Shown here: positions 3,001-33,726 of the stretch, piece after piece
Numbering within the stretch: position 1 is the first letter of the stretch
How the letters are laid out: each line of letters begins with the position of its first letter
IMG/VR virus record: IMGVR_UViG_3300037054_000044
Location: 21,206-85,205 of that record
Origin: a virus
Length of the DNA stretch: 64,000 bases
Reading direction: 5' to 3' (one strand)
Translations under genes and position numbers: made by a program
The notes under the pieces: generated by a model
What the model was told of the DNA's origin: nothing
The model's input: only the letters and a program-made list of their open reading frames with translations
The model's database searches: none

Positions 3001-5016
3001 CAAAACGGAGTACCGGGAGCAAACTTCTACGTCATCATGCAACCTGTTAAGGACATAGTAAACAGCGTGCCAGTGACGTACAGTTCTACGATCATCAACG
3101 ACAACACAACCACCGACAACATCCAGTTTACTTTCACCGATGCAGTTCTCTTGAATTCCAGAGAGATCGACATTCAAGGTGACAATCTGTTTAACTTGAT
3201 TGAGTTGGGAAGCGCAGCTTGGGTTGTGCCATATGTTGGTCGCAACTTCTACGGCTTGCAACTGAACAAGATTGACAACTGGTGGACAGGTGGTTCCCTT
3301 GCGTTTGACCAAGGATACTTGCCTGCCGCTGGAGGTAACATTCAACCCTTGGGATGGTCTACACTGAACAGCGTAGATCAGACACTGATTGTCAGTGCCA
3401 TAACAGGTGATGCTCTGTATATCAAGAACGTGAGTGGAGCAACTGCTCCTATCACAGGAATGGTGTGGCAGACTGCATACCAAGACTACTACGCAACGGC
3501 GATCCTTAAACCCAACGTCACTTACTCGGTGAGGGTGTCAGCATATATACCCTCGGGCATCACTGTTGGAAACTTAGTGATTGACTTGACGGATTACGTC
3601 ACTGGTATAGGTGCAGGGTTTGCACCTACGTCGTATGGCTCTTTCACCGTGCCGTTCTCAAGCATGTCAACTAACGACCAAGTGTTCACTGGGACACTGC
3701 TAACAGTTCCATTCCTGAACCAAGTATCGCCCAACGTACAGATTCGAGTGTATGGGACGAACATGGCAGCGGGAGCGGACCTTGCAGTTGATCGCATCGA
3801 AGTGTTCGAGACACTGACGCCTTACCTAAAGGCGCAGGTGTACGGCTCCTATGCGAACCAGCCCGAAGCAATCGACGCCTCAGGTACAGGCGGCATCATA
3901 GACACAACCTCCGAGAATGCACAGCCGTGCATGGGGGCCTTCGTGATGCACAACCTGTTGTACCTGCTGAAGACGCAAAGCTGGTACTCCACTCAAGACA
4001 ATCCAAACTCCGAACCCGGAGGTTGGGGGCTTAACGAGGTCTCGAATAAAGTAGGGACAATCGGAATCAACTCCTATGACACAGGAGAAGAGTGGTGCAT
4101 CACCGCATGTCGCTCTGGCATCTATGGCTTCGACGGTGGACAACCTACGAAGATATCACAGGAACTGTGGAATCTCTGGGAGTGCATCAACTGGGACGCA
4201 GGGAACACCATCGTGCTACGCAACGACGTGGTATCCAAGCGTCTCTATGTTGCTATTCCATTACCCACAGGGACTGACCCTGCCACAAGCAAAGCGCTCC
4301 CCTCGGTAAAATGGTTGCCAGCGGCTCCATACAATCCAACTCCAAATTCACCAAACGTTATGCTGATGATGAACTATCAAGGACTAGCTGACATCAAAGA
4401 AATGATGATGTCTCCCGAAGTCCATACTACGATGTTCGGCACTTTGGCAGCAGTTGACATGAAGCGGAAATGGACTATCTGGAACATCGCAACCCCAGAC
4501 ATGGAATTCATCATGCAGCAGGACGGAGAGTCAACTCCTCTGTACATCTGCAATGGTATCGCATCTTCCAAGATTTATAAGTTGGATCAGAACAAGTACT
4601 CTGATGACGGCCAGCCAATTAACAGCTTGTACACTACGTACGGGTTCGTCAATGCGGCTAAGGCTGCAACGCTGCCGATCTTTGGATTCCATCGTAAATT
4701 ATACACTGTTTTCCAAACATCCATCACAGGAGGACAACTGTACAAGAGCACGGCAACCAACGCAAAGATTAGAATGTTGCCAAACACTCTCAATCCTAAA
4801 TTCCCGTATACAGTGCCTGTGGGCATACCATTGGTTGATCCTGCTATGGATGACTACTTCCGCCCAATTAACACAGCGGGTAATCGTATGTTTGTGGAGG
4901 TGAGCAGTTTTGCGGTTGGTAGTTGGTTTAATCTTAGTAAGATACTTATTACTGGAAAAGCCGATCCGCACTCTACGCTCAATCCCACGGGCGGTGGGAA
5001 CGCAGGTATTGTGTAA
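1..5016 (+). CDS. Large virion tail hub/stabilisation protein (P22 gp10/T7 gp12-like C-terminus) with beta-rich insertions; 5' end lies outside the window
   Basis: Frame open from base 1 (NAQDLPEGASPRCWDCDF...). T/G/S/V-rich beta sequence. C-terminal GIYGFDGGQPTKISQEL..W..IN..RLYVAIP resembles podoviral tail hub proteins. Confidence 0.65.
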   Translation, partial: NAQDLPEGASPRCWDCDFIIGSVFTRAGLSSVYSYASSLNITMLQVGSGSVGTFSYSGNSTPTVNEGFVLQGFSGSAQSLNGQTIFVIYVNAIAGTFTADVALPAGTYINLTGTAVSIVGQFLGPNIPTAAVSVALSGGNAWQTPNNVMGTVGYATVLSGSTVVTSQVPLLAGSLPIGGTVLWNNPSFLNHPSGGNTFASITIAAGQAQNPLIAYNGALAVPADAIVNGVTVAVYAGSMNAGGSLSIQLADGDTDTAVGTAVNIPLAVNSAKVYSVGSAFYQWGTTLTPAMLNGTHLGVIVKAAVTSGSTFIWANGVIVTVYYTLAGSSQVLKTTGYVFSAPSTAGVTGFGVTFQAFTTATNTLSVQLLKNGIAVGQPKTLALTTTPTIYSLGAPSDLWGSTWTYADINNTSFGVAIVASDSGTVSINDLDVLAYITPAQVNFNYVKSYIQDDGQIDTLALDASGLMWKEDVTSAPGALAVVLSGILPGSFAKSATADNNEYIMFSDLAIGTDRPRVYFRGEQFLPLSQGGPGAPPTVVASQSTAGGTLAVTDYSSDGTVITFTFTAVAGFTPVINSLYTIQGTGVAALDNQTFEVVAPVSGTTFTASFVHTPISGSGLVGATAVPTTSYGITSIVQDGNTSSTPLQVGSVPFNGQITTWSAQGQFGTAGTTVRFYYGSANSPQNQSLLDTIAAYGTAYVYIVSTAAWPTATTIGSGTYQVINTGTAIPGFGEHQPVPWFEIAYGSSSAVGGQHWGDALNTGNTGHWQQTLATVTTAVAIPGLGPGGNLTIQGVNTSWDKTWTVLQALKSNVMSISSVSMDGSGVATYDYNVTSVPAVLPAAGEEVTITGTTNSIGAPGIFNTVGIISSASGTQFTVAGFTPPAGGIPSTPQSGAQASTSGTQFTFDPGQTVPNGSSINTIYGNVGATGSVSVTNGAFTPIGQGTRQAVVFFITTSGYETTPSYPVTFDTTANSNFLTFSGVPIGPPDTVARGIAITEAGQNGVPGANFYVIMQPVKDIVNSVPVTYSSTIINDNTTTDNIQFTFTDAVLLNSREIDIQGDNLFNLIELGSAAWVVPYVGRNFYGLQLNKIDNWWTGGSLAFDQGYLPAAGGNIQPLGWSTLNSVDQTLIVSAITGDALYIKNVSGATAPITGMVWQTAYQDYYATAILKPNVTYSVRVSAYIPSGITVGNLVIDLTDYVTGIGAGFAPTSYGSFTVPFSSMSTNDQVFTGTLLTVPFLNQVSPNVQIRVYGTNMAAGADLAVDRIEVFETLTPYLKAQVYGSYANQPEAIDASGTGGIIDTTSENAQPCMGAFVMHNLLYLLKTQSWYSTQDNPNSEPGGWGLNEVSNKVGTIGINSYDTGEEWCITACRSGIYGFDGGQPTKISQELWNLWECINWDAGNTIVLRNDVVSKRLYVAIPLPTGTDPATSKALPSVKWLPAAPYNPTPNSPNVMLMMNYQGLADIKEMMMSPEVHTTMFGTLAAVDMKRKWTIWNIATPDMEFIMQQDGESTPLYICNGIASSKIYKLDQNKYSDDGQPINSLYTTYGFVNAAKAATLPIFGFHRKLYTVFQTSITGGQLYKSTATNAKIRMLPNTLNPKFPYTVPVGIPLVDPAMDDYFRPINTAGNRMFVEVSSFAVGSWFNLSKILITGKADPHSTLNPTGGGNAGIV

Positions 5017-5019
5017 GAC

Positions 5020-5048
5020 TTGACTTTATACTAGGAAACTGGTATAAT
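5020..5048 (+). promoter_or_regulatory. Sigma70-type promoter for HNH gene
   Basis: TTGACT-17 bp-TATAAT with TG extension. Confidence 0.75.
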
Positions 5049-5050
5049 GA

Positions 5051-5105
5051 TTGTAGTGAGGCTCAGCCGTGAACTGCGCCTCACTGCAAATTCCTTTCAC
5101 GGAGG
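5051..5105 (+). promoter_or_regulatory. RBS-occluding pseudoknot leader, copy 1
   Basis: Stem 5051-5066/5074-5089; loop CCGTGAA complementary to TTCACGG (5096-5102), which overlaps SD GGAGG. Confidence 0.65.
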
Positions 5106-5110
5106 AAACT

Positions 5111-5710
5111 ATGTTAAAGAAGTGCACAGTTTGCAATGAAGAGTTTGAAGCATATCGGAGCGGCAAATTATGTTCCGATAAGTGTAGAGAAGAAAAAGAA
5201 CTACAAAGAAATAGAAAAAGAGCTAGAACCAAAAAGTACCAAGAGCAGCAACGAAGGTACAGAGAAGAACACCGTGTTGTAGCAGTTAAAAGACAAAGAA
5301 CATACTATGCTACTCACAAAGATCGACTCAATTCTACGCGCAGAAAGAAATATGCTAAAAACCCAGAGCCTGCAAAGCTGCAAGCAAAGACTTGGGCGCA
5401 GAAGAACAAACAGAGAAAAACTGCGACTGACAAGGCGTGGGTGAAATCTAACCCTGACAAGTTTAAAGCTGCGCAGCATAGACATCGCACTGCTAAGAAG
5501 AGCAACGGTGGTTCCTTCACCGCCGCTGAGTGGAACGCTCTGTGTAAGCATTACCACAACCGTTGCCTGTGCTGTGGAAAACGTAGGAAACTCACAGCAG
5601 ACCACGTGATCCCCGTGTCCAAAGGTGGATCGAGCAATATTAGCAACATTCAACCTCTTTGCGGACCTTGCAATTCTAGCAAAGGAATAAAGAGCACAGA
5701 TTTTAGGTAG
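5111..5710 (+). CDS. HNH homing endonuclease
   Basis: CLCC..LTADHVIPVSKGGSSNISNIQPLCGPCNSSK; GGAGG RBS before ATG 5111. Confidence 0.9.
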   Translation: MLKKCTVCNEEFEAYRSGKLCSDKCREEKELQRNRKRARTKKYQEQQRRYREEHRVVAVKRQRTYYATHKDRLNSTRRKKYAKNPEPAKLQAKTWAQKNKQRKTATDKAWVKSNPDKFKAAQHRHRTAKKSNGGSFTAAEWNALCKHYHNRCLCCGKRRKLTADHVIPVSKGGSSNISNIQPLCGPCNSSKGIKSTDFR

Positions 5711-5722
5711 AGGGAGAACTCA

Positions 5723-6349
5723 ATGGCACAAGGTGAAAATCAGCAGGTACAAGGTGGTCGTGAATTGGCGTACATAAACCAACGCGATGCCTATGCAGGT
5801 TCTCTGTTTGGTAGGCTTATAACTGCGATGAACACCCTTGCCAAGAACGCTGGTGTAGCTGCTGTAGGTAAAGTATCACCTCCTCCTCCGATTGATGCAA
5901 TTAACGTACAAGGAGCCTTGTCCGGGGGCATTATGACAGCTCCTTCAGAGATACTTCACTGGACCCTTCAACACTCTCAGGCCATACAGAAGAACATTCA
6001 TTACTTCAGTGAGATTGACACCGATCCAAACTTCCCAGCACCACACGTCGTTGCCCATGGCGCATCTCGTAGCGCATTTCTTACGCTACCTAAGATGGAC
6101 AACGCAGGAAATGTGCAAACATATTATCTAAGAAGCTACGCGCAGATGCCTGGGTCAAACCCATGTAAACCCAAGGTTCACGGCAACCTTGGTGGTGCAA
6201 TAGGAATTCAGATGACAGGTGCTAGTAAAACATCGCTCCTGCCATCAGCAGGAAGTGGCACAGCAAGTCCCAACGGACAGCAGGGTGGGTCGGGGCTTGG
6301 TGTTGTGTTAGACAGACCAGCACCGGGTCCGAAAAGGAATATAGCATGA
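5723..6349 (+). CDS. Putative virion structural protein
   Basis: 208 aa ORF with GGAG RBS, within the structural operon. Confidence 0.55.
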   Translation: MAQGENQQVQGGRELAYINQRDAYAGSLFGRLITAMNTLAKNAGVAAVGKVSPPPPIDAINVQGALSGGIMTAPSEILHWTLQHSQAIQKNIHYFSEIDTDPNFPAPHVVAHGASRSAFLTLPKMDNAGNVQTYYLRSYAQMPGSNPCKPKVHGNLGGAIGIQMTGASKTSLLPSAGSGTASPNGQQGGSGLGVVLDRPAPGPKRNIA

Positions 6350-6852
6350 TTGTTTACTTGGCAACGAACACTGTGAACGGTAAACAATACGTCGGGCAAA
6401 CTACGTCAACACTAGAACGACGTTGGCAAAAACATTACCAGTCTGCTCGGGCAAATAATCAACGTCATTACAAGATCAGTAGAGCACTCGTGAAGTATGG
6501 TAAGAATAACTTCACGGTAGAAGTACTTGCTGTCTGTAAGAACAAGACAGATATGGATAAGAAAGAAAAGTACTTCATAAAAACTTTGGAAACCAGAGAA
6601 AAAGGCTACAATATCACCTCTGGTGGAGAAGGCGCGGTAGGGTACAGACATACTTCTGCATCTAAATTAAAAATGCACACCGCACAACTTGGGAACACGA
6701 AGATGCTAGGCAAGCATACCTCTTTGCTACAAAAGCAGAGAGCAAGTGAGACATGGTTAGGTAGAAAACACACCGCTGAAGCCAAGGCGAAGATGAGAAC
6801 CGCAGCCCTGTTACGCCACAGAGAACGCAACAATAAAGGGCAATATTCATAA
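6346..6852 (+). CDS. GIY-YIG homing endonuclease with NUMOD3 repeats
   Basis: MIVYLATNTVNGKQYVGQT...GYNITSGGEG...HTAEAKAKM; ATGA-coupled to upstream gene. Confidence 0.9.
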   Translation: MIVYLATNTVNGKQYVGQTTSTLERRWQKHYQSARANNQRHYKISRALVKYGKNNFTVEVLAVCKNKTDMDKKEKYFIKTLETREKGYNITSGGEGAVGYRHTSASKLKMHTAQLGNTKMLGKHTSLLQKQRASETWLGRKHTAEAKAKMRTAALLRHRERNNKGQYS

Positions 6853-6863
6853 AGGAAAATGCA

Positions 6864-7472
6864 ATGATGAAAACAATTTTTGCCCTGATGTTTCAGGGCG
6901 TGTTCCCTTGTTTTATAGGGCTGGGCGGTAGCAAGTTCGCACCTTTAGCAGCGGCCAACACAGCGGCAGCGCAGGGTGCGGTGGGAACGTATGGTACTAA
7001 TGCGGCGACAGAAGGTGCTGCACTAAACCCTTTCTTCACCCAAGAGATGAACGCACAGCATTCCCTAAACCCTAATCAGACAGACGAGATGCTAACCGCA
7101 GCCGAAAGCGGTGCAGGTGCAGCGACGGGCGCTGAGCAAGGTGCATTGATTAACAACGCCACGCGCACGGGTAATGCTACGGGCGTAACTAAGTCTCTCG
7201 ATGAGATGGCTAGGGACAAGGCCAAGGCAGCAGCAGGAGCCAGCGAAGGTATCGCAGCGCAAGACGTAATGGGAGCCAAGGCTCTAAACCAGCAGGGCGC
7301 GGCAGGCATGCAAGGGCTGTACGGCGTCAACACTGGCGCTCAGTTGAACGCTATGAAGCAAGCCAACGCTGATGTACAGACACAACAGGAACTAAACCCT
7401 GGATGGTTGAAGGGTGTTGAAGGCATTGTAAACACAGCAGCAAACGCGGCTTCGGCTGCAGCCAAATTCTAA
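6864..7472 (+). CDS. Ala/Gly/Gln-rich DNA ejection (pilot)-like virion protein
   Basis: Composition and position after the tail hub. Confidence 0.55.
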   Translation: MMKTIFALMFQGVFPCFIGLGGSKFAPLAAANTAAAQGAVGTYGTNAATEGAALNPFFTQEMNAQHSLNPNQTDEMLTAAESGAGAATGAEQGALINNATRTGNATGVTKSLDEMARDKAKAAAGASEGIAAQDVMGAKALNQQGAAGMQGLYGVNTGAQLNAMKQANADVQTQQELNPGWLKGVEGIVNTAANAASAAAKF

Positions 7473-7481
7473 GGAGAGACC

Positions 7482-10400
7482 ATGGCAGACACGTTAACTA
7501 AACTTGGCGATAAAGTCAAGGATTACTGGGGCAAGATCAAGTCTCTCCCGCCTGATGAAGGCGAAGCACAAGCCATCAAGGAGAAGCAGGCCAACGTCGA
7601 TGCAGTGACAGCCAAGCCTACTCCAGAGCCAGAGCACACTGGAAGTGAACCTATGCCGCAGGGCAACTATGGATCACGCCCTGGTGAGAAACGACTAGAC
7701 TGGGCAATGAAGCCAGAGGCACCTGTTTACGACAATGGTGGGGATGTAGCCATGTCAGGCTTTAAAAAGATGGCACCATCTCTTGACGAGGAAGACCCAC
7801 ATCTTAAAGAGGAACAGATTCCTCAGTACACGCATGGCAATGACCCTGCAAGAGCCAAACCACAGCCGAAGGACTTCAATGGAGGCTCCGTGGGAGGTGT
7901 GCAAGACACAGCCCTGGCAACTCCTATGTATGCTCCTGGGCAAGCCCCAGCTATGGCTGCACCAATAATGGACAACGGCGGCGACGTGAAGAACATCAAC
8001 GATGGGCAGCATCAGGTGGCGATCCTGCAGACAGGTGAGCGAGTGCTCGACCGCGACGAAGCAGCACGCTATCGTCAGATGCACGGCTCAAAGATGCCGA
8101 CCATGCATGAGTCTATGGACGTGAACACAGGGAAGCCTTCATCGTCTTTGCCTGAGTTGACACCTGCGATTAAGCCGACACCCACAGCACCACTGTATGA
8201 CCAAGGTGGCATTGTAGGTGGCAGCAACCTGCGTAAGCTGGGAGCACCTGTCTACGACAACGGTGGGGAAGTGAAGACACAGCCTAGTTATGAGGAGAGA
8301 ATTGCACCTTACCAACTTCCTCGGGGATATGAAGATGCAAAACCTGTGCATGACACATTGCAACTTCCTAGGGGCTATGAGGACGCACAGCCTGTTTCAC
8401 GTTATGGCGAGGCTCAGGCTGTGGCAAATCGACCTAGAATTGGCATGCCAAAGATTAGCATGGAAGAGGATCACTCTACAGAGAAAAGATCAACACTTCC
8501 TGTCTATGATGACGGCGGTAGCGTGGACGTGAATGATGGGCAACACCAAGCAGCTATCTTAAAAGACGGAGAGCGCGTGCTCACCCCAGAAGAGAATGCA
8601 CAGTACAAAGCAGAGCACCCAGAGAAGGGTGCGCCTGCAGACTTCGGTGGACGTGTAATACCTAATCCCAAAGGCATAAAGCCTATGGACAGCGATGCAC
8701 CTCATGCACCGACACCCATGACTTACCCAGGCGGGGCAAAGATGAACATCGACAACGCTCCTCTGGATGACAAGGAGAGCGAGAAGACGTTCCCTACGGT
8801 CATGCCTACGGAAGCCAGTGCCAAAAGTCCAGCACGGCCTTACGCAGAGGTGGAAGCAGAGCAGAAGAAAGCAGCCGAAGCCAAAGTGAATGGAGATCAA
8901 GGTGCGCAAGTTGCTCCTGCTCCTACACAGGAGTCAGTACCTGAGCAGTTGCCTACCGCAACGCACGAAGAGCGCGTGGCGATTAAGCATGACGAGCAAG
9001 AGGCTATGGGCAAAGGCATCCAAGGGTTGACGCAACTTGGAATGTCAAAGATTCACGCTAAGCAGTTAGGCATCAATGAAGAGCCTAGCACCGAAGGCGT
9101 TACTGCCCCCAAGGAATTCGCACGGCCTGAGCAGGGTGGCTTCCCCAAGATGGGCGAAGCAACCCCCGAGGCAGCCGCACCCGCAGCACCCGCTGCTGGA
9201 GCACCTGCAGCACCTACTACTACCTCTGAGCGTTCCCCAGACTTCAAAGCTAAGCTGGCACAGTTGAACCAAGACCATGCCAATGCATTAGCAGAGCGTA
9301 CGCCTGAAGGCAAAGTTCGAGCGGATTATATTCAAGAGCAAATAAACGATCTGCACAAGAACAACCCATGGGGTACCGCTGGAAACAGACCAGGAGCGCT
9401 CGGGCGGCTGGGGCACATCGCTTCTAAGTTCGGTAACTTGGCGGGAGATGTTTTTGCTCCAGCCACGATGGAACTAATCCCTGGCACTGACCTGAACAAA
9501 CGAGTTCAGGAAGCTGGTCTGCAGAAGCAGACGCAAGCCGACGTTCAAGAAGCCACAGCACGTGAGGCTGAAGAGAATAAAGCAGGAAAAGTAGCGCCAC
9601 AAGACACCTACAAGGAAGCCACACAGGGAGGCATAACTGACCCTGCGCATCCTGAACTAGGACCGCAACAGGCGTATGTAGATGAGAAAGACCCAAGCAA
9701 GATTCACTTCGCAGGGCCTATGCCTCCCAAGGCAGGGGCAGAGAAGGACCAACCTGCCAACGTGGATCAGCAGAAGGATTACCAACAGCGCATTGCTAAC
9801 TCTGGGTTGACTGGACAAGCATTGCAAACTTATGGTACAGTACCTAAGGGAGCTACTACAGCCGAACTGGATAAGCGCTTCGATGAGGCTACTAAACTGC
9901 GTGGCATGAACCAGAAGGACCAAGAAACCGCAATCCAGAACCAAGCACGTAAGGACGCTGCCGATGAGAAGCAGTTTGAGCACGAACAGGCACGTGCTGA
10001 CAAGTTGGAGAACCAACACTTCAGTTACGTAGATGAAAAGGGACAGACACAAATCACCACTGGCGATAAAGTAAAAGAGTTGCCAGAAGGTACACAAACT
10101 ATCCCAATAAAAGACGTAGCCAATCTCGTTGGAGAAGCACGCTCTATGAACGCTGTGCAGGAGAACATGAATGTTCTGCACAAAGACATAGAAGAGCACC
10201 CAGAAGTGTTCGACAACGCAGCAGCACGCACTATTGTTCAAACTACTACTAAGGAAATGAACCGAGCATCTATAGGTCTGTTAGTTGCTGGCACAGGCAT
10301 GAATTTGCCTATTCCAGAAGGTTTTAACAACATGATAGATACAGCCCTGCAGAACAATGCACTGGACGCAAAAACAGCCAAGTCCGTAAAGAACTACATC

Positions 10401-10739
10401 GCAGACTACAAAGCCTTAAAAGACAAGGCAATGGTCATCCAGATGATGATGCAGAACGGCAAGATGGGTAGAGGTGGAATGCAGGCATTTGATTCCATCG
10501 TTAACCAACTGCCTGGAGGTTCAACTCCAGACAGCGCCACAGCCGCTCGTCAAATGGGAGCACTGCAGAACACAGTCAAGGGACTGATGGGTAAATACCC
10601 AGAAAAGTACGCTGACTACACCAAGGCTAAGCCGTATGAAGCCAAGGAGCAGGGTGCTGCCCCCAAGCAGGGTGACAAGCATCAATACGCTGGTGCCAAC
10701 TATACGTTTGACGGTAAACAGTGGGTGCAGCAAAAGTAG
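7482..10739 (+). CDS. Large internal virion/ejection protein with repeated P(V/L)YDxGG and AILxxGERVL motifs
   Basis: 1085 aa, RBS AAGGAG, low-complexity helical sequence, internal repeats. Confidence 0.6.
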   Translation: MADTLTKLGDKVKDYWGKIKSLPPDEGEAQAIKEKQANVDAVTAKPTPEPEHTGSEPMPQGNYGSRPGEKRLDWAMKPEAPVYDNGGDVAMSGFKKMAPSLDEEDPHLKEEQIPQYTHGNDPARAKPQPKDFNGGSVGGVQDTALATPMYAPGQAPAMAAPIMDNGGDVKNINDGQHQVAILQTGERVLDRDEAARYRQMHGSKMPTMHESMDVNTGKPSSSLPELTPAIKPTPTAPLYDQGGIVGGSNLRKLGAPVYDNGGEVKTQPSYEERIAPYQLPRGYEDAKPVHDTLQLPRGYEDAQPVSRYGEAQAVANRPRIGMPKISMEEDHSTEKRSTLPVYDDGGSVDVNDGQHQAAILKDGERVLTPEENAQYKAEHPEKGAPADFGGRVIPNPKGIKPMDSDAPHAPTPMTYPGGAKMNIDNAPLDDKESEKTFPTVMPTEASAKSPARPYAEVEAEQKKAAEAKVNGDQGAQVAPAPTQESVPEQLPTATHEERVAIKHDEQEAMGKGIQGLTQLGMSKIHAKQLGINEEPSTEGVTAPKEFARPEQGGFPKMGEATPEAAAPAAPAAGAPAAPTTTSERSPDFKAKLAQLNQDHANALAERTPEGKVRADYIQEQINDLHKNNPWGTAGNRPGALGRLGHIASKFGNLAGDVFAPATMELIPGTDLNKRVQEAGLQKQTQADVQEATAREAEENKAGKVAPQDTYKEATQGGITDPAHPELGPQQAYVDEKDPSKIHFAGPMPPKAGAEKDQPANVDQQKDYQQRIANSGLTGQALQTYGTVPKGATTAELDKRFDEATKLRGMNQKDQETAIQNQARKDAADEKQFEHEQARADKLENQHFSYVDEKGQTQITTGDKVKELPEGTQTIPIKDVANLVGEARSMNAVQENMNVLHKDIEEHPEVFDNAAARTIVQTTTKEMNRASIGLLVAGTGMNLPIPEGFNNMIDTALQNNALDAKTAKSVKNYIADYKALKDKAMVIQMMMQNGKMGRGGMQAFDSIVNQLPGGSTPDSATAARQMGALQNTVKGLMGKYPEKYADYTKAKPYEAKEQGAAPKQGDKHQYAGANYTFDGKQWVQQK

Positions 10740-10746
10740 AAGAAAT

Positions 10747-10820
10747 CTCAGGGCCTCGAACCCTGGGCTAGAGTCGGGAGGTGCCAGTTACACCTCCCTT
10801 CTCGACCTTAACTGGAGGAG
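10747..10820 (+). promoter_or_regulatory. Hairpin plus RBS-occluding pseudoknot leader, copy 2
   Basis: P1 CTCAGGG/CCCTGGG; P2 GGGAGGTG/CACCTCCC; loop CCAGTTA pairs with TAACTGG (10809-10815), overlapping SD. Confidence 0.7.
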
Positions 10821-10822
10821 CA

Positions 10823-11455
10823 ATGTATTACACGTATTTGTGGTTAAGAGAAGACAGCACTCCGTACTATGTTGGAAAAGGTTCAAAGAATAGAGCCTAC
10901 ATTAGTTTTTCGCATGGTGTTCATAAGCCTACAGATAAAAGTAGAATCATCATCTATCCAGCAGAGTCTGAAACCAATGCGTTTGAAACAGAGATAGCGC
11001 TAATTTGGTATTATGGAAGAAAAGATTTAGGGTTAGGCTGCTTAAGAAACCTAACAGATGGTGGAGAAAATCCTCCTAAGATGTATGGCAAAAGGTCCAA
11101 AGAAACTTGCAGAAGGATCAGTGAAGCCCTTAAGGGCGGAGTAAGAACAGAAGAGCATCGTAAAAAGATAAGTGATACTCTTAAAGCCTATACCATACCA
11201 GAGTCGGTGCGCATTAAAATGGTTACTGCACTTAGGCTAAAACTGGTAGGCAAAAAGCACCCCATATCTGAAGAAACTAGAAAAAAGATAAGTATGTCCC
11301 TTACAGGAAAACCAGGGCACAAGTCAACAGAAGAAACAAATCAAAAGATACGTTTAAAAGCTACAGGAAGAAAGCATTCGGCTGAGACTCGCTTAAAAAT
11401 GAGTATATCAGCAAAGAACAGAGGAAAAAATGGCAGACACACAGGTAGCACCTGA
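10823..11455 (+). CDS. GIY-YIG-like homing endonuclease with NUMOD3 repeats
   Basis: YYTYLWLREDSTPYYVGKG...LRNLTDGGE; repeated SEETRKKIS/HSAETRLKMS. Confidence 0.85.
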   Translation: MYYTYLWLREDSTPYYVGKGSKNRAYISFSHGVHKPTDKSRIIIYPAESETNAFETEIALIWYYGRKDLGLGCLRNLTDGGENPPKMYGKRSKETCRRISEALKGGVRTEEHRKKISDTLKAYTIPESVRIKMVTALRLKLVGKKHPISEETRKKISMSLTGKPGHKSTEETNQKIRLKATGRKHSAETRLKMSISAKNRGKNGRHTGST

Positions 11456-13898
11456 TCAGCAACAGGCACCCGACACATTACCTGCTGACTTTTTCCAAAC
11501 CAAAGGTACAGCCACAAGTGCGCCTGATACGCTCCCAGCAGATTTCAAGTTCAAAGAAACTCCTGAGGAAAAACCCCAGCCATCTGTTATGCACAATGTT
11601 GGGGAGTATGGAAAAGGCTTAGCACACTCCGTGGGACTTCCTGAGTCTATGCAAGAGGCAGAAGAAGGAACCAAAGCGGCTACTGAAGTAACTCCCATGA
11701 ACGCTATCCGCGCAGTAGGCGGCCCTGCCGTGAGCGCAGGAGAGCAAGTTTACAATGCTGGCAAGGGATACCTGAAAGGTTTGTGGAACACAGGAAAAGA
11801 AGCCTACGAAGCAGGGCAGAATATTGCCAAGGGTGGTCCTGTACTTCAGAACATAGCAAAACCAGCTTCTGAGTATCTGAATACCAATGTAGGAGCAGTT
11901 CCGTTCATCGGACAACCTACCGTAGAAGCAGGCAAGGATATCGCCGCAGGAACCAAAGATATTGTAGGAATGACACCACGAGCCGCAGGTGAACTGACTG
12001 GAGCAATTGGTCAGGTTGCGTTGCCTGAAGTGCTAGACAGAGTGCATCCTGAGCAAACCATGGACTTCCACAATAAAGCCGTGGAAACTGCACAGAAGAA
12101 ACTAGACACCGCCAAAAAGGCGGCTCTACCGTATGCGGACTCTGTGGATAAAGGTGTGCAGCCTCCCGCTAAAATTCAGAAGCCAATTGACAAGGCACAG
12201 ACCGAGTTGAATGAGGCCATTTACCACCGTGATACGCATAGGGATGCGATGGATGCACGGCGTACACACGTCACCAATCCCAAAGCCCCTGCTGCTGCCC
12301 CTGAGGTGCCTACAGAGCAGATTGAAGCAATGCCGCGCCCTGGTGCTCCTAAGCCAGCCGCTGCACCCGAGAACGTCAAAGTCCCAGGACAGGTTCAGCC
12401 AGAGGTAGTGCCACAGCCTCTGCTTGAACAGCCGCGCACTCCTATAGGACGCATGCAGCTTCCCGATGAGCAAGGCACAATGGGCAAGCCACGGCAACTC
12501 ACCGCAGGTGCCAATCCTCCCACAGGCTCATCGAACCTAGAGGATGTAGTAAAGGCTACGGAAGAGAAAGAAAAGCCGGGAATGCCACAGATGAGGTTGC
12601 CTGAAGAGGCACCGAAGTCGGGAATGCCACAGATGACGGATGAGGCCGCGCTGCGAGCATTGGAAGCTAAAGAAGGAAAGGTTGTAACGAATCCTAAGAA
12701 GTTAGTAGGCGAGCAACTGAAGGAAGCGTTGAAGCCGGGAGAAGCAGCTAAGCCTGTTGCCGAGAAGGCACCAGCAGTTGCTGAGAAGCCTGCTGAGCCG
12801 CCCGTTGCCAAGGCCGAGGAAAAGCCTGTTCTTCCCAAGGAAGAGCCCACTGGCTATACTCCCAAAGCAGAAGAAGTTGTAAAAGCTGGAGAAGAAGGCC
12901 GCACACCTGCAAAGAGTGCAGCAGAGTATCACCCTGCCGTGCAGCAGAAGGTCAACGAACTGTCCGATGAGAAACTTCGTACGCTCGCAAAGGCGCACGG
13001 CTTGAATCCTGACGAGTATGATTTCAATGCACGTGACGAAGGCCGTCATCGCACTGAGCGTGACCGATTAGCGCGGGAAGTTACCGAACAGATGGGCGAT
13101 GACGAAAAGATCAACCTAGGCCGTGCAGCAGAGAAGGCGGATAAGGAAGGTCTATTCCAAGGCGCAGATACGTCTTCCAAAGGGCGTGCAGCACGTGCGG
13201 AGAAGATGTTCCCACGTCTACGCGGTCCCGTTGATGAGCACGGTAATCCTAAGATTGGCGGTGGGTCACAAGCTGCCACAGCTACTGCCAAGGAAAAGTA
13301 CGCAGGAGAAGAACGGCGTACTGCTGAACGTAAGGCACCGCTTAATTCTAAGGAAACGGAAGAGGCTATAAAAAGCCGTAAACCATTCACCAACCCATTC
13401 GACGAAACCGAGGGTGCTTCCAAAACTATAGCCAAGGACAAGAACATGCCCGTCCACCCGGCTGAGGAAGCCAAGGCAGTAACTAAGGCTGATAACTACC
13501 ATGGTGAGCCCATGTCCTATGAGCACCACCCCATGGGAGAAGAAGGTAGCAATCAGCAACATCACGTCACAACCAAGGATACAAACGGTCGTAAGATTGG
13601 AGAACTAGTAGCACAGGACACAAAGTCCGGTGTAGCTACTGTGCGCTCCAACCAAATTTACGATAAAGAGTTGCAAGGCAAAGGCCGGGGTGTTGACCAA
13701 ATTACTCACTTCCTGAACAACGTAGGGAAAGACATCCACACTGTGCATAGCGACATCAGCACATCTGACCAAGCGAGGGGAGCATGGGATAAACTTGAGA
13801 AAGCATATCCTGAGTCCGTGACTAAGAAGACGTACAAAGATGGCCAAACTCGCTACACCGTGGATATGGAAAAGTACCAAGAAGAACTAAAGAAATAA
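11430..13898 (+). CDS. Internal virion protein with C-terminal GNAT-like domain
   Basis: 822 aa, Pro/Glu/Lys-rich; C-terminal ELQGKGRG...VHSD..TSDQARGAWDKL. Confidence 0.55.
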   Translation: MADTQVAPDQQQAPDTLPADFFQTKGTATSAPDTLPADFKFKETPEEKPQPSVMHNVGEYGKGLAHSVGLPESMQEAEEGTKAATEVTPMNAIRAVGGPAVSAGEQVYNAGKGYLKGLWNTGKEAYEAGQNIAKGGPVLQNIAKPASEYLNTNVGAVPFIGQPTVEAGKDIAAGTKDIVGMTPRAAGELTGAIGQVALPEVLDRVHPEQTMDFHNKAVETAQKKLDTAKKAALPYADSVDKGVQPPAKIQKPIDKAQTELNEAIYHRDTHRDAMDARRTHVTNPKAPAAAPEVPTEQIEAMPRPGAPKPAAAPENVKVPGQVQPEVVPQPLLEQPRTPIGRMQLPDEQGTMGKPRQLTAGANPPTGSSNLEDVVKATEEKEKPGMPQMRLPEEAPKSGMPQMTDEAALRALEAKEGKVVTNPKKLVGEQLKEALKPGEAAKPVAEKAPAVAEKPAEPPVAKAEEKPVLPKEEPTGYTPKAEEVVKAGEEGRTPAKSAAEYHPAVQQKVNELSDEKLRTLAKAHGLNPDEYDFNARDEGRHRTERDRLAREVTEQMGDDEKINLGRAAEKADKEGLFQGADTSSKGRAARAEKMFPRLRGPVDEHGNPKIGGGSQAATATAKEKYAGEERRTAERKAPLNSKETEEAIKSRKPFTNPFDETEGASKTIAKDKNMPVHPAEEAKAVTKADNYHGEPMSYEHHPMGEEGSNQQHHVTTKDTNGRKIGELVAQDTKSGVATVRSNQIYDKELQGKGRGVDQITHFLNNVGKDIHTVHSDISTSDQARGAWDKLEKAYPESVTKKTYKDGQTRYTVDMEKYQEELKK

Positions 13899-13904
13899 CA
13901 GAAT

Positions 13905-13976
13905 CTCAGGGGTTGCTCCCTGAGCCAGTGCTGGGCGGTGCTCGTTACACCGCTCAGTGCAACCTTAACGAGGGGG
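13905..13976 (+). promoter_or_regulatory. Hairpin plus RBS-occluding pseudoknot leader, copy 3
   Basis: P1 CTCAGGGG/TCCCTGAG; 13-bp P2; loop CTCGTTA pairs with TAACGAG (13966-13972). Confidence 0.7.
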
Positions 13977-13980
13977 AATT

Positions 13981-14526
13981 ATGTACAAGAACCCAGAAGA
14001 TAGTAAAGCTAACAACGCAAAGTGGAGAAAGTCTCACAGGGAAGAGGACTTGGCTAGGAAGAGAAAATGGTACCTAAAGAACCGTATTTACTTATTACAG
14101 CAAGCGCACCTTTGGAGAATCAACAATAGAGAAACTTCCCGTGAAAGCAATAGAAAATGGAAGAAGAACAACCCAGAGATAGTACTAAGAGAAGGACGGG
14201 AGTGGAGAAAAAACAATCCAGACAAGGTAAAAGTGAACGACCACAGGCGCTTGGCTCTTAAAGCAGGCAACGGAGGTTCTTTTACCGCTGCTGAGTGGAA
14301 CTCTTTGTGTAAGCACTATAGGCATCACTGTCTGTGCTGCAACAAGAAAAGAAAACTGACAGCAGATCATGTTGTCCCTTTGTCCAAGGGAGGCACAAGT
14401 AATATAGAAAATATTCAACCCTTATGCGGCCCTTGTAATTCAAGGAAGGGAACAAAAACAATAGACTACCGCAAACAAAATCCTGAAAGTCCTGCCATTA
14501 CGCAGGGGAATGCGAGTACATTTTGA
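13981..14526 (+). CDS. HNH homing endonuclease (paralogue of 5111..5710)
   Basis: NGGSFTAAEWNSLCKHY..CLCC..LTADHVVPLSKGG..NIQPLCGPCN, nearly identical to the HNH domain at 5111. Confidence 0.9.
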   Translation: MYKNPEDSKANNAKWRKSHREEDLARKRKWYLKNRIYLLQQAHLWRINNRETSRESNRKWKKNNPEIVLREGREWRKNNPDKVKVNDHRRLALKAGNGGSFTAAEWNSLCKHYRHHCLCCNKKRKLTADHVVPLSKGGTSNIENIQPLCGPCNSRKGTKTIDYRKQNPESPAITQGNASTF

Positions 14527-15278
14527 GCCTATACACTAAGTCACCGTTTAAACCGTCACCAACTCTGCTCGTGCAGGGCAGACCAGAATACACATTCGGA
14601 AGCTGGCTCGACAAGACAGGCCCAACTTTGGGCTATGTAATTTCAGACTCAGCGGTAACAACCACTGGAACTTTAACGTTTCGCATAGCCTCAGGAAATG
14701 TCCCAGTCGTGGGTAGCCTGATTACTGTGATTGGCACTGTCAATGGCAGTGGAAACCTGAATGTGACCAACGCACAGATTTTGTCTGCAACGACTACGAA
14801 CGCCGGAATTTCCACGGTGACTTTCACCATCACCTCCTCGACCGTAGCAGCGGGAACGCCTGACGGTGGCCAAGTATCTATACCGCAGCCTGAACTTGGG
14901 GATGTCCTATCGTCATTCCCAGCGTCATCCATTGCAGTTGCTTGCCCATCATCCCCTGGCAATCAGTCAGGCAAATCCCTTAGCGCCACTGTTAAGCTGC
15001 CAGCGCAGCAACTCGGTGTTGCGAGTACCTTGTCAGCAGTTACGGTTCTTATTCAAGGCGCGAACTTCGATGAAGATGCGCAGTATAACACCATAGGAAC
15101 TATCACTGCAGCAGGCACAGCATCGGGTGGGCCAAACGTTTATGACTGGCAATCAGGACAAGGTAACTCCGGTACACTAGCCTCAGGCGATGTTGATTTG
15201 ATCAACTTCAGGTTTTACAGACTACAAGTATCTGCGGCGACGGGCTCTGGACCTGTTGTCGGAACCATAATGTTCTAG
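14523..15278 (+). CDS. Putative virion structural protein (beta-rich)
   Basis: 251 aa T/G/S/V-rich ORF in the structural operon. Confidence 0.55.
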   Translation: MSLYTKSPFKPSPTLLVQGRPEYTFGSWLDKTGPTLGYVISDSAVTTTGTLTFRIASGNVPVVGSLITVIGTVNGSGNLNVTNAQILSATTTNAGISTVTFTITSSTVAAGTPDGGQVSIPQPELGDVLSSFPASSIAVACPSSPGNQSGKSLSATVKLPAQQLGVASTLSAVTVLIQGANFDEDAQYNTIGTITAAGTASGGPNVYDWQSGQGNSGTLASGDVDLINFRFYRLQVSAATGSGPVVGTIMF

Positions 15279-15350
15279 TATCGGTAATATGCGCAATTCA
15301 TAGCAAGCGGGGTAAAAGCCCTCGCAGACATTTGAACTCAGGAGACTCAT

Positions 15351-15797
15351 ATGGAACTCAAAGAAATTGCGTTGCAGTTAGCAGAGCAATCTGCACAGTT
15401 GGAACAAGAGGGACAGGCCGCTCAGCGGACTGCTATGGAAGAAACTGCTAAGGCTCTAAAGTTAGAAGAAGAGCGAAGAGCCGCAGAGAAGAAAGCAGCG
15501 GACGTAGCCAATGCACGCGCCGAGAAGAAAGCAGCGGACAAGCGCGAGGCCGAGGCTGAGCAATTGCGTACGGAATCCGAAGCACGCCGCCGCATAGAGC
15601 AGGCAGCGGATAAGCAACGAGAAGACATTGAAAAGGCCATGTATATCAAGGAAGGCATTGCTAGGCAGATGGCTGAGATAGAGCACGCGGCGGATGTCGC
15701 TGTGCGTCAGATTGAAGATGCAAAAAATCGCATCGTAGTAGCAGAGGTCACACCAGAGCATCCGCTCAAGCGTTTCTTACAACACGCACCAGAATAA
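15351..15797 (+). CDS. Coiled-coil hypothetical protein
   Basis: AGGAG RBS, E/A/K/R-rich. Confidence 0.6.
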   Translation: MELKEIALQLAEQSAQLEQEGQAAQRTAMEETAKALKLEEERRAAEKKAADVANARAEKKAADKREAEAEQLRTESEARRRIEQAADKQREDIEKAMYIKEGIARQMAEIEHAADVAVRQIEDAKNRIVVAEVTPEHPLKRFLQHAPE

Positions 15798-15806
15798 GGA
15801 GTACGC

Positions 15807-15986
15807 ATGGCAACGTTTAGCCCAGATGGAAATGAACGAAACCGTATGGTAACGCTCTGGAACCAAGGCAAAACCTTGGCGCAGATTGCTACCACGTTTG
15901 GTTGCTCTACTGCTATAGTAGATGCAACTATTAAGGCACTTTCTACAGAAGGGTGTTTTTCAGCTATAGACTACACAGGTTTGTAA
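15807..15986 (+). CDS. Small helix-turn-helix protein (59 aa, not in ORF track)
   Basis: AAGGAG RBS; MATFSPDGNERNRMVTLWNQGKTLAQIATTFGCSTAIV... Confidence 0.6.
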   Translation: MATFSPDGNERNRMVTLWNQGKTLAQIATTFGCSTAIVDATIKALSTEGCFSAIDYTGL

Positions 15987-15991
15987 ACATC

Positions 15992-16066
15992 CCAAGGCTT
16001 AGCGGCTTTGGAGCAGAGCAGGGGAGTGTCCTCAAAGCCTCCCCGCTCGACCTACTTTGAGGAGGA
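15992..16066 (+). promoter_or_regulatory. Hairpin plus RBS-occluding pseudoknot leader, copy 4
   Basis: P1 CCAAGGCT/GGCTTTGG; P2 GAGC-GGGGAG/CTCCCC-GCTC; loop TCCTCAAAG pairs with CTTTGAGGA (16055-16063). Confidence 0.7.
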
Positions 16067-16071
16067 ACAAT

Positions 16072-16794
16072 ATGCCAGCAAAAGGTTTTAGGAAAGAAAA
16101 GTGTATAAGAGGCCATCTCAGGACACCAGACAACGTACGATTAAACGGAAACTGTGTACAGTGCCAATTGCCGTTGCAGTCTCGGACTAAGAAAACCCAC
16201 TGTTTGCGTGGGCATGAAAAAACAAGCGACAACACAACTAAAAGTGGAAATTGCAGAACGTGTTCATTGGAGCACAGCAGAAGTTACTACCAAGAAAACT
16301 TAGAGTCCGAAAAAGAAAAAGCACGATTGCGACAGGCATCGCATCCAGAAGAACGCAGGGAAAGTGTTAAGAGGTTTCTTTCAACGCATCCTGGCTATGC
16401 TTTGGAATACCACAGAGCGTGGGCTAAGGCGAACCCAGATAGAAAAGCTGAGCATGCCCGTAGGACGCGCAAAAAGCACCCTGAAACAAAAAAGGCAGCC
16501 CATCACCGACGTAAAGCATGGAAGTTAGGCAACGGCGGTTCTTGGACGCCCAGAGAGTGGCTAGAACTTAAAGTGGTATATGGGCTTAAGTGCCTATGCT
16601 GTCTTCACAGCGAAGAAGCCTTGTTTGAGGTAGGTTTAAAACTGGTACCAGACCATATACAGCCTTTAGCAAAAGGCGGAAGAAATAGCATTGAAAATTT
16701 GCAACCACTTTGCCACGGCAAGGGTGGATGTAACAACAGTAAGTCTATCAGATGGATAGACTATCGTCCCGGTTTCCCGTTAGAAATTGTGTAA
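16072..16794 (+). CDS. HNH homing endonuclease with N-terminal CxRGH zinc modules
   Basis: CIRGH, CLRGH; LVPDHIQPLAKGGRNSIENLQPLC...CN. Confidence 0.88.
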   Translation: MPAKGFRKEKCIRGHLRTPDNVRLNGNCVQCQLPLQSRTKKTHCLRGHEKTSDNTTKSGNCRTCSLEHSRSYYQENLESEKEKARLRQASHPEERRESVKRFLSTHPGYALEYHRAWAKANPDRKAEHARRTRKKHPETKKAAHHRRKAWKLGNGGSWTPREWLELKVVYGLKCLCCLHSEEALFEVGLKLVPDHIQPLAKGGRNSIENLQPLCHGKGGCNNSKSIRWIDYRPGFPLEIV

Positions 16795-16819
16795 AATACA
16801 AGTTCGTTGAGGTAGCCCC

Positions 16820-18520
16820 ATGTCACTATTTGCATATCCAAACCAGAGATACACCAGTCAACTGGGCTTAGCCCTCTTCGGACAAGAAGAGATAATTGCG
16901 GAGAACTTCCTACTGATCGACGCAGCTTACGCGGCTGGTTCTTCAATTTCAGTTAACGGCACATTGGTGCCTTCCCCAAACCTGTCCTCCACCCTGCCCC
17001 TTGCGCCGTTGGGCGAGCAGCTAGTTACGTTCCAGTTTGACATCAATGGGAACATCTCAGCGTACGTTCCGATACCTGCCGCAGGAGGAGTGACTTCGTT
17101 CTCAGGGGACTCCGTTGTGTATAACAACGCACTGTCCGCTGGAGCGGTCACATTGTCTCTCATTGCGCAGGCAGCAAACTTTGTACTTGCAGGGCCAGCA
17201 TCTGCTGGACCAACAGCACCTACCTTCCGCGCACTAGTTGCAGCGGACATCCCTTCACTATCGGGTACGTATTTGCCCTTGGCAGGTGGAACCCTTACAG
17301 GGAACCTGCTATTCAGTTTAGACAATGCACACACCATAGGAGCGGTGGGCGCAACGCGGCCTAGCATCATCTACGCAGGTACCTCTGTAATCGCTCCGCT
17401 CTTCAACGCAGCTACAGGCTTTCAAATCGCAGGTGCAGCACCCTCTGGACACTTCCTAGTCGGCAATGGCACAAACTACGTGGACGCCACGGCTCTGCCT
17501 TCCGGTACTGTTACATGGAACCAAATTGGCAACGCCGCCGCCGCCCTGTCCCTGTCCAATGCGAATTACGCTACGACATTCAACCAGACATCTGCAGTGG
17601 CGTGGACGTGGGCAAACACCACGGTCGGGACTGTAGGGTCCACCAACGCATCCCCATTGCTTGAACTCGCAGCTAACTACTGGGCAACTGGTGGCGCTAC
17701 TGGCGTGGATTTGTGGACAATCGGTACTGCTGCGATAGTGGCAGGTTTGAACGGCAGAAGCAACCTGACTTTCACCCATACGGGTAGCACAGGACAAGCC
17801 GCCGTTCAGGTACCATTGCTTGACATCGGTGGAACCGATGCAGGCATCTCTCGCCTCGGTGCAGCATCCTTAGCAATCGGCAATGGGACTGCTGGGGATT
17901 ACTCTGGCAACTTGACTCTAGGAACCTTAGTCACAACAAGGTCAACTACTTTTATCAACGGAGCATCCTTCGGCGGCAATGGCTCTAGTGCAGGAACCTT
18001 TATTCAACTCTATGCAGCAGCCAGTGATGGTAGCGCGGCCACAATCCTAGCAAACTTCTACGGATCAACACAGGGCATTCTGTACATCGGTAACTACGCC
18101 CACCAAAACGCAATCGGAATCAACACAGATGGGACGTTCATCTTTGGTGCTGCACATGACTCGGGCATCTCCCGCCTCGGTGCAGCATCCTTAGCAATCG
18201 GCAATGGGACTGCTGGGGATTACTCTGGCAACTTGAGTTTCAACAGAGTTAGCCTTGCAGGTGCGGACTATGCTGGACAAGCAACTGTTACTGCTGCGGC
18301 AACGACCAAAGCAGTTACCTTTGCAGCTAACTATACTGGTACAGCACAGCCCGTGATTGTGCTGACGCCAACGTCTGACCCACTCGCTCTGGGGGTGCCG
18401 GTCGGATACTGGGTTACGTACAGTGGAGGCGCAGGCGCGTGGACTGGATTCACAGTGAACATACAAACAGCACTAGCAGGAAATGTGACGTTCAATTACA
18501 TTGTTATTGGCAAAGCATAA
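16820..18520 (+). CDS. Tail fibre / receptor-binding protein
   Basis: YLPLAGGTLTGNL and PTAPTFRALVAADIP fibre motifs; G/A/T-rich. Confidence 0.8.
   Translation: MSLFAYPNQRYTSQLGLALFGQEEIIAENFLLIDAAYAAGSSISVNGTLVPSPNLSSTLPLAPLGEQLVTFQFDINGNISAYVPIPAAGGVTSFSGDSVVYNNALSAGAVTLSLIAQAANFVLAGPASAGPTAPTFRALVAADIPSLSGTYLPLAGGTLTGNLLFSLDNAHTIGAVGATRPSIIYAGTSVIAPLFNAATGFQIAGAAPSGHFLVGNGTNYVDATALPSGTVTWNQIGNAAAALSLSNANYATTFNQTSAVAWTWANTTVGTVGSTNASPLLELAANYWATGGATGVDLWTIGTAAIVAGLNGRSNLTFTHTGSTGQAAVQVPLLDIGGTDAGISRLGAASLAIGNGTAGDYSGNLTLGTLVTTRSTTFINGASFGGNGSSAGTFIQLYAAASDGSAATILANFYGSTQGILYIGNYAHQNAIGINTDGTFIFGAAHDSGISRLGAASLAIGNGTAGDYSGNLSFNRVSLAGADYAGQATVTAAATTKAVTFAANYTGTAQPVIVLTPTSDPLALGVPVGYWVTYSGGAGAWTGFTVNIQTALAGNVTFNYIVIGKA
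17843..18236 (+). repeat. 73-bp direct repeat pair (17843-17915 and 18164-18236) inside the fibre gene
   Basis: 72/73 identical; both encode GISRLGAASLAIGNGTAGDYSGNL; offset 321 bp (in frame). Confidence 0.95.
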
Positions 18521-24851: not shown

Positions 24852-24927
24852 AGGGGGATAAGATAACTGACTAATCGGCTCGTTTCCAAAACCTGCAATC
24901 TGGGTTCAAATCCCAGTCGCCCTACCA
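24852..24927 (+). tRNA. tRNA-Trp(CCA), degenerate
   Basis: Perfect T arm CTGGG-TTCAAAT-CCCAG, 3' ACCA, loop TTCCAAA; mismatches in acceptor and anticodon stems. Confidence 0.65.
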
Positions 24928-33671: not shown

Positions 33672-33697
33672 TTTTAACCTTTTCTCTAACTGATTAA

Positions 33698-33726
33698 AGT
33701 ATAACACACTTTGAGAGGAAAGTCAA
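33698..33726 (-). promoter_or_regulatory. Sigma70-type promoter
   Basis: TTGACT-17 bp-TATACT. Confidence 0.7.

Follow-up and report, generated by a model that had tools for sequence, protein, structure and literature searches.

A covarying leader RNA in front of mobile homing endonuclease genes of uncultured phages

Leaders preceding nuclease genes in the phage record

We analysed 64,000 nucleotides (nt) of phage DNA (hereafter the window), corresponding to bases 21206-85205 of the 85,205-nt linear IMG/VR virus record IMGVR_UViG_3300037054_000044 (CheckV completeness 77). Four homing endonuclease genes (HEGs) of the window, C, D, E and F, are preceded by similar leaders, which are the subject of this work. 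In each of them a hairpin (P1) follows the stop codon of the upstream gene, then comes a long GC-rich hairpin (P2) with a 7-nt loop, and an exact complement of this loop is found 20-25 nt further downstream. The complement leads into the AGG or GGG of the Shine-Dalgarno sequence (SD), and the ATG start codon follows 5-8 nt later (Table 1).

A preliminary description of this DNA had drawn attention to four loops exactly complementary to the bases preceding the SD, and all four were found where it had placed them. The copies are more numerous than it had counted: its four are real, but the record holds seven, namely C, D, E, F, a decayed copy G and two copies upstream of the window. The latter, identified by a scan of the whole record, lie at record positions 538-630, in front of an Endonuclease_7 gene, and 4054-4144, in front of an HNH/endoVII-type gene. 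A 5' hairpin with a conserved junction behind it had been attributed to three copies only. The hairpin after the stop codon and the junction, which reads YUAG, are real, but C has the 5' hairpin too.

Table 1. Positions of leaders, their parts and the adjoining genes in the window. Bit scores refer to the covariance model R1 described in the text; anti-SD is the segment facing the SD.
Feature	Position	Strand	Details
Leader C, divergent copy	5017-5113	+	R1 26.4 bits, E 0.00086
Leader C, 5' parts	P1 5026-5047; P2 5051-5089	+	loop CCGTGAA 5067-5073
Leader C, 3' parts	anti-SD 5091-5095; complement 5096-5102; SD 5103-5107; ATG 5111	+	UUCCU; TTCACGG; AGGAA
Sigma-70-like promoter (predicted)	5020-5048	+	TTGACT-17 nt-TATAAT, read from sequence
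HNH homing endonuclease gene C	5111-5710	+	199 amino acids (aa); Pfam HNH, E 2.2e-11
Leader D	10740-10825	+	R1 79.1 bits
Leader D, P1 and lower P2	P1 10747-10767; junction 10768-10771; lower P2 10771-10773 with 10801-10803	+	junction CUAG
Leader D, upper P2	10776-10783 with 10791-10798; loop 10784-10790; GA 10804-10805	+	loop CCAGTTA
Leader D, 3' parts	anti-SD 10806-10808; complement 10809-10815; SD 10816-10818; ATG 10823	+	CCU; TAACTGG; AGG
GIY-YIG-like/NUMOD3 homing endonuclease gene D	10823-11455	+	210 aa; Pfam NUMOD3 E 1.4e-07; phrog_314 'homing endonuclease' E 3.4e-17
Leader E	13899-13983	+	R1 71.3 bits
Leader E, 5' parts and linker	P1 13905-13924; P2 13928-13960; loop 13941-13947; linker 13961-13965	+	loop CTCGTTA; linker AACCU
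Leader E, 3' parts	complement 13966-13972; SD 13973-13975; ATG 13981	+	TAACGAG; GGG
HNH homing endonuclease gene E	13981-14526	+	181 aa; Pfam HNH, E 7.7e-12
Leader F	15987-16074	+	R1 51.6 bits
Leader F, 5' parts	P1 15992-16011; P2 16016-16048; loop 16030-16036	+	loop CCTCAAA
Leader F, 3' parts	complement 16056-16062; ATG 16072	+	TTTGAGG (9 base pairs if extended); SD AGGAGG
HNH homing endonuclease gene F	16072-16794	+	240 aa; Pfam HNH, E 9.5e-06
Leader G, decayed cassette	48296-48388	-	R1 45.9 bits

Leader G retains P1 and P2 intact. Its loop, CCTAAGA, has no downstream complement (the best candidate contains 2 mismatches), and only a C-terminal HNH-family fragment is left behind it (frame 48095-48415 (-); phrog_99 'HNH endonuclease', E 4e-17, residues 34-103). 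An AP2 identity considered for this frame has no Pfam support and was discarded in favour of the HNH-family fragment indicated by PHROGs.

In leader C the promoter-like sequence overlaps or forms the P1 hairpin and would, judging from its position, start transcripts at the foot of P2. The 3' end of gene D overlaps the start of the next gene (11430).

Homologous leaders and covariation of their helices

Next, we looked for the same leader elsewhere. It is present in IMG/VR contigs encoding relatives of proteins D and E. A structural scan gave 39 distinct matches, of which four were dropped by eye as unrelated (L013-, L025-, L071 and L094), and three matches on the record's own sequence were replaced by six references to the record's own copies. 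In the resulting alignment A1 of 38 copies, RNAalifold recovered P1 (7 base pairs, bp) and the upper part of P2 (8 bp); 14 of these 15 pairs carry compensatory changes. A covariance model, R1, was then built on P1 and upper P2 alone, so that the loop pairing does not enter the model.

A covariance model search of phage metagenomes had been proposed in the preliminary description. With R1 it yielded 95 copies, 70 of them distinct, in 86 sources comprising 722,784 bases of IMG/VR contigs. These are 86 of 140 collected sources; L001 and 53 of the sources L002-L069, fetched with D- and E-type proteins, were left aside, many of them repeating contigs covered by L070-L139 too. Counts below refer to the 70 distinct copies unless another sample is named.

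In the R1 alignment, P1 is paired in 95.7% and P2 in 97.5% of cases, and all 15 pairs show changes on both sides. The helix between the P2 loop and the ribosome-binding site (RBS), in which 6 of the 7 pairs change on both sides, is paired in 83.4%, compared with 57.3% after shuffling (0/500) and 30-52% when one strand is slid along the other. For the structure of four helices the corresponding values are 88.7%, 68.7% (0/500) and 42-50%.

We also parsed each of the 70 copies separately. An exact complement of the whole 6-7-nt P2 loop is present in 63 of them, with 39 distinct loops. Of the remaining seven, five contain one mismatch (three are register slips) and two are decayed. When loops were exchanged between copies, 5 of 1360 combinations were complementary. 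An independent pattern, fixing the P2 stem only, found an exact complement within 30 nt in 21 of 38 unique matches; among the other 17, only L103 has the P1 and linker of the family (as judged by eye from the printed flanks), and it departs by 1 mismatch. The covariation establishes these pairings, and the earlier observation that pairing is kept while sequences differ extends from the four copies to the family.

G.U pairs occur on the sense strand only (UG in 25/70 at pair 17-41, GU in 13 at pair 54-77), which points to RNA rather than DNA as the functional form of the element. The last bases of the loop complement are, in most copies, the initial GG of GGAGG, column 96 being G in 87% and column 95 in 80%. 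Going by the covariation, a local structure would thus base-pair the SD region of the nuclease gene, which is the mark of T-even-type HEG RBS structures.

No family already described in Rfam matches the leaders. At gathering thresholds, Rfam 15 recognises only a tRNA and a permuted tmRNA in the window; at E<=10 over 4800-16400 it gives five weak matches, none of them at the leaders, with preQ1, SAM-II/V, pistol, twister and HEARO included.

The common architecture of the leader, about 90 nt long, can be described as follows. P1 begins 3-14 nt past the upstream stop codon and is followed by the junction YUAG and by P2. From its base upward, P2 has a lower stem with U-A and A.G as closing layers, then a small internal loop, 8 bp of upper stem and a loop of 6-7 nt beginning with C. 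On the 3' side of P2 come 'GA', a short anti-SD segment (CCU or UCU), the exact loop complement ending in GG, then AGG or AGA, 5-9 nt and the start codon. About eight unpaired positions are conserved (A13, U24, U44, A45, G46, G85, A86 and the first loop base). Three of these are invariant, the first loop base and the junction bases A45 and G46, the latter two in 70/70 copies. The U-A-G of the conserved CUAG junction faces C-G-A in lower P2, whose layers are U-A (54/70), A.G (53/70), G-C and a covarying layer (AU 30, CG 17, GU 3 and UG 2 of 70).

Some P1 loops (alignment A2, columns 22-36) contain palindromes of at least 6 nt, such as TGATCA, TAATTA, TTATAA and TTCGAA. They occur in 10 of 24 loop types, against 3.6 in shuffled loops (0/2000), which could hint at loop-loop dimerisation of the RNA in a subset of leaders. 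We do not build upon this, because the two commonest loop types (18 and 14 copies) are free of any palindrome.

The linker preceding the pairing strand had been called similar among the four copies. Its character can be specified: it is an anti-SD able to pair with the SD in a third hairpin, P3. Thus CCU, UCU, AUCU, GUCC, AACU and UUCU face AGG, AGA, AGAU, GGAC, AGUU and AGAA, respectively, across the 7-nt complement. The strand complementary to the P2 loop can therefore be a hairpin loop itself, and the interaction can be one of two kissing loops. In a test of the flanks, 3.07 consecutive pairs were found compared with 2.40 after shuffling, and at least four pairs in 29% compared with 9% (0/2000 each). 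A P3 hairpin around the pairing strand is thus modestly supported by the sequences.

Among the 63 copies with an exact complement, 47 have a connector of 5 nt, and 56 one of 4-6 nt, counted from the final Watson-Crick pair of P2 to the loop complement. Formation of the U-A and A.G layers would shorten it to 3 nt, and these are the very bases of the anti-SD. Crossing a stem of 12-14 layers with so short a connector is at or beyond what H-type pseudoknots usually allow. The preliminary description had spoken of pseudoknots. Loop-to-RBS pairing is real, but the arrangement is probably not a plain H-type one, considering the possible kissing loop, the lower P2 stem and the connector of 3-5 nt. In ColE1 RNA I/RNA II and TAR-TAR* complexes, seven-base loops kiss with all 6-7 loop bases paired, between two molecules; here both partners reside on one mRNA, about 20 nt apart.

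Leaders and nuclease genes form mobile cassettes

Which genes follow the leaders? The set of downstream proteins comprised 59 distinct open reading frames (ORFs) of at least 60 aa and the ORF of C, added by hand; the start of F was set to ATG 16072. Of these 60 proteins, 57 are nuclease-like and belong to at least five families: 24 are GIY-like, 14 Endonuclease_7, 11 HNH, 2 type B and 1 HNH_3, and 5 form another HNH-like group, labelled from a DH...N...H motif and BLAST links, with no family match of its own. The other three are one decayed endonuclease and two large non-nuclease genes. The preliminary description was right in this respect: the motif accompanies HEGs of unrelated families.

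BLAST among the collected loci revealed HEG-less alleles at two insertion sites. There, 9-36 nt separate the flanking genes and the leader is absent, so the leader is part of the mobile cassette. The inserted segment starts at the upstream stop codon and ends a few bases before the next ATG; in between lie a (T)TTTGAAACATC box, the leader and the nuclease gene, in this order. One and the same site may be taken by different HEGs from contig to contig, and one relic (L079:3704) consists of a leader with a 30-codon stump. For site D, a search with the 822-aa neighbour, aimed at a HEG-less allele, yielded no relative.

At their 5' edge, cassettes of different insertion sites share a conserved box, (T)TTTGAA(A/G)CATC, which lies behind the upstream stop codon and ahead of P1; examples are L078:245-270, L080:1290-1315 and window 15980-15991.

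It had been assumed that the leaders lie within a strong late transcript. This is not supported: several copies have their own promoter-like sequence, an extended -10-like box situated 12-20 nt ahead of P1, and C has the full TTGACT-17-TATAAT arrangement. Since these promoter-like boxes lie just upstream, some leaders are probably 5' untranslated regions (UTRs) of their own transcripts.

Possible function, rival explanations and genomic setting

A homing endonuclease has to be made in amounts that suffice for its spread but do no harm to the carrier phage. To our knowledge, the controls known until now are single RBS hairpins in T4-type phages. From the sequences described above we infer that the leader acts in cis on translation, locking the RBS of mobile free-standing HEG cassettes, and we give this reading a probability of about 0.65. 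The whole GGAGG would be paired: the P2 loop would take up its first two G and the anti-SD the remainder, and because of this 30S subunits would rarely bind the masked RBS. The nuclease would then stay scarce even on abundant transcripts, and its scarcity would spare the phage and let the cassette sit between essential genes. As the promoter-like -10 boxes are situated upstream of P1 or P2, the whole lock would be transcribed.

RBS-sequestering structures lower translation of I-TevI and Aeh1 mobE and are implicated for segB (PMC3014915). The hairpins described there for T-even HEGs (I-TevI, I-TevII/III, Aeh1 mobE and T4 segB) are likewise cis-acting RNA structures over a HEG RBS, by which abundant transcripts give little nuclease. 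They are single hairpins, several of them with a late promoter inside, which allows late transcripts to escape (PMC3014915). The present leader differs in having three hairpins and a loop-to-RBS helix and in being one homologous, portable module found in at least five nuclease families. A late promoter TATAAATA inside the structure occurs in 0/70 leaders.

Hairpins were also described in 15 of 16 HEG 5' UTRs of fractured genes from marine metagenomes (Dassa et al. 2009, PMC2677866). According to that description, gene-invading endonucleases are accompanied by a conserved, structured 5' UTR, as here, and one locus keeps the hairpin after endonuclease loss, like the solo leaders of our collection (PMC2677866). 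By the same description these hairpins are set apart from our leaders, being simple, with an Aeh1-type late promoter box in 10 of them, and described with no loop-to-RBS pairing (PMC2677866).

Several observations weigh against a static translational lock as the whole explanation. An intact leader (L100:8348-8441) directly precedes a giant structural, non-HEG gene (at least 1678 aa). Contigs from two peat RNA-library runs of different studies (X17 and X18) join 10817 to 11430 via 51 other letters; this junction represents a strain that has kept leader D and lacks HEG D. The record contains at least ten further nuclease-like genes that have no leader and abut or overlap the upstream gene, so the leader is not required for carrying a HEG. 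In the contigs of four metatranscriptome runs, neither starts or ends nor the strand can be read at the leaders, features which contigs show poorly; adaptor-tagged contig ends lie away from the leaders, at 5431, 7406, 14046 and 15761. These runs speak neither for nor against processing.

Further points concern the structure itself. Of the four leaders, C (-6.7) and E (-3.0) alone reach strong nested-fold z-scores; those of D (-1.7) and F (-0.9) are weak. When hairpin loops of any kind followed by a complement were counted in a relaxed scan, the record gave 93 cases and 10 Markov shuffles gave 54-82; the pattern by itself is not rare and not clearly enriched. Because of this and the unexceptional nested folds of D and F, the case rests on homology and covariation. 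P3 is paired in 82.4%, only modestly above the composition-driven background (77.0% shuffled, 75.7% at slide -3). Finally, so short a connector hardly seems to leave room for lower P2, the loop helix and P3 together, which makes a simple static picture incomplete.

Geometry that would forbid all three helices at once, together with their similar energies, leads to a two-state or kinetic reading, which we hold to be rather unlikely. Full-length P2 would form first with the RBS open; its lower stem would then open, and the loop helix and P3 would lock the RBS. Each mRNA would give a short burst of nuclease, and a factor bound to the invariant UAG/CGA layer could shift the balance. Consistent with such refolding, both the lower stem and the loop helix covary, the connector is short in nearly all copies, A45 and G46 never change, and the mean energies of lower stem and loop duplex are alike (-7.1 and -7.2 kcal/mol).

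There is a precedent in the maturation-gene 5' UTR of the levivirus MS2, where the SD is paired within a multi-hairpin leader of a low-copy gene and translation is limited to a folding window (PMC4615214). MS2 differs in being an RNA phage with a long-distance upstream partner and a proven kinetic trap (PMC4615214); here the partner is a hairpin loop and the two states are deduced. The mutual exclusion of the helices is deduced from A-form geometry, and a pseudoknot under strain, its 5-nt loop crossing about 12 bp, could form instead. Lower-stem strength is unrelated to loop-duplex strength (rho about 0). Compared with P3 it gives rho +0.41, a stronger lower stem going with fewer P3 pairs, which is opposite in sign to the balance predicted; with related sequences, these statistics are soft.

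A fuller version of the two-state idea appears slightly less probable still. The leader might be a portable, self-timing translational switch, carried by HEG cassettes of at least five enzyme families. Its three covarying helices would not be simultaneous, and full-length P2 with an open RBS would refold into a kissing-loop or pseudoknot lock. The UAG/CGA layer might serve as hinge or factor-binding site, and the whole would be, in a DNA phage, the equivalent of the timer of the MS2 maturation gene.

It is improbable that the leader is primarily an element of mRNA processing, stability or insulation, with RBS masking secondary. P1 would guard the upstream message, and P2 with the loop helix would make an RNase III-type site or a 5' stabiliser, keeping the flanking essential genes expressed. 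The position of P1 fits this: among the 46 leaders (of 70) with a long upstream ORF ending nearby, 39 have P1 starting 1-14 nt behind the stop codon. So do the conserved CUAG junction, the intact solo leaders persisting ahead of structural genes and the combined length of P2 (12-14 layers) and the 7-bp loop helix, about two helical turns. Left unexplained is why the loop matches RBS-adjacent bases so regularly with so many different loops. Contig or read ends do not pile up at the leaders, though contigs show this poorly, and TTTT after the P1 start occurs in 3/70 leaders only, so the leaders are not intrinsic terminators.

A role at the DNA level, as a homology handle for nuclease swapping, a homing or operator site, or a protein-bound inverted repeat, is very improbable. 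Homologous leaders ahead of unrelated nuclease families, exchange of HEGs at one site and the loop CCTAGAA, common to leaders of different nuclease families, would agree with it. However, G.U wobble is tolerated on the coding strand only, pairing is conserved rather than sequence, the complement always overlaps the SD, and 39 loops argue against a single DNA-binding protein. None of the processing, insulation and DNA-level roles explains the loop-to-RBS covariation.

A metabolite riboswitch or a self-cleaving ribozyme, for example of the pistol-like hairpin-plus-pseudoknot kind, had been left as an option in the preliminary description; we consider it hardly credible, and a terminator role is likewise unlikely. 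As described for the preQ1-II/III and SAM-II/SAM-V riboswitches, an H-type or related pseudoknot includes the SD in its 3' strand, like here, and the leader does have a few invariant bases; those riboswitches have conserved ligand pockets and precede metabolic genes, whereas our leaders combine variable loops, a loop helix free to vary and thus ill-suited to a ligand pocket, only about eight conserved unpaired bases, nucleases of at least five families downstream and no Rfam match even at E<=10.

Masking the RBS of HEGs follows a known logic; this RNA family and its architecture are not known. We found no description of such a leader in the literature, and a recent preprint on noncoding families does not contain the words endonuclease, homing or phage. 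One homologous, strongly covarying RNA module is common to unrelated nuclease genes of many uncultured phages and moves with them. If confirmed, it would add an RNA family to Rfam, allow mobile nuclease cassettes and what is left of them to be recognised in metagenomes, and provide a compact natural part for tight translational repression. Should the two-state reading be true, the leader would offer a clean natural system for co-transcriptional RNA refolding.

The surroundings of the leaders are those of a phage with no match in a cultured-phage collection, searched by megablast with 4000-17000, by tblastn with the 566-aa protein and by blastn with leader E. Near-identical DNA is present in peat and permafrost metagenomes of many studies and also in some metatranscriptome libraries. 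As to the host, an 18-nt P1 pattern matched eight stretches in genome contigs; R1 recognises 0/8 of them, so the matches are due to chance and indicate no host.

Between 1 and 25 kb, the + strand carries very large unannotated genes, presumably for the virion, and a DNA transfer protein. The - strand between 26 and 64 kb encodes a primase/helicase, a helicase, an exonuclease, a UvsX-like recombinase and a Mom-like DNA modification protein (41778-42686 (-); phrog_1384, E 1.9e-25).

Nuclease-like genes total about 17 in 85 kb. Five leaderless HNH-type genes, all on the - strand (29821-30234, 33246-33707, 38001-38591, 40695-41318 and 44888-45328), lie in the replication module and adjoin their upstream genes; four are paralogues (repeat families D2, D3 and D8). 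A leaderless Endonuclease_7 gene (21532-22149 (+), E 2e-15) and a leaderless GIY-YIG gene (6346-6852 (+), E 1.2e-14) each overlap the end of the upstream gene.

The 566-aa ORF (16820-18520) includes a near-perfect 73-nt direct repeat with a spacing of 321 nt (17843-18236), resembling an internal domain duplication. A tRNA-Trp is located at 24852-24927, and 46437-46850 (-) encodes a circularly permuted, two-piece tmRNA of the phage (Rfam tmRNA_permuted, 75.9 bits), for which ARAGORN gives the tag ANENIVVPKAKAMGAAAGC.

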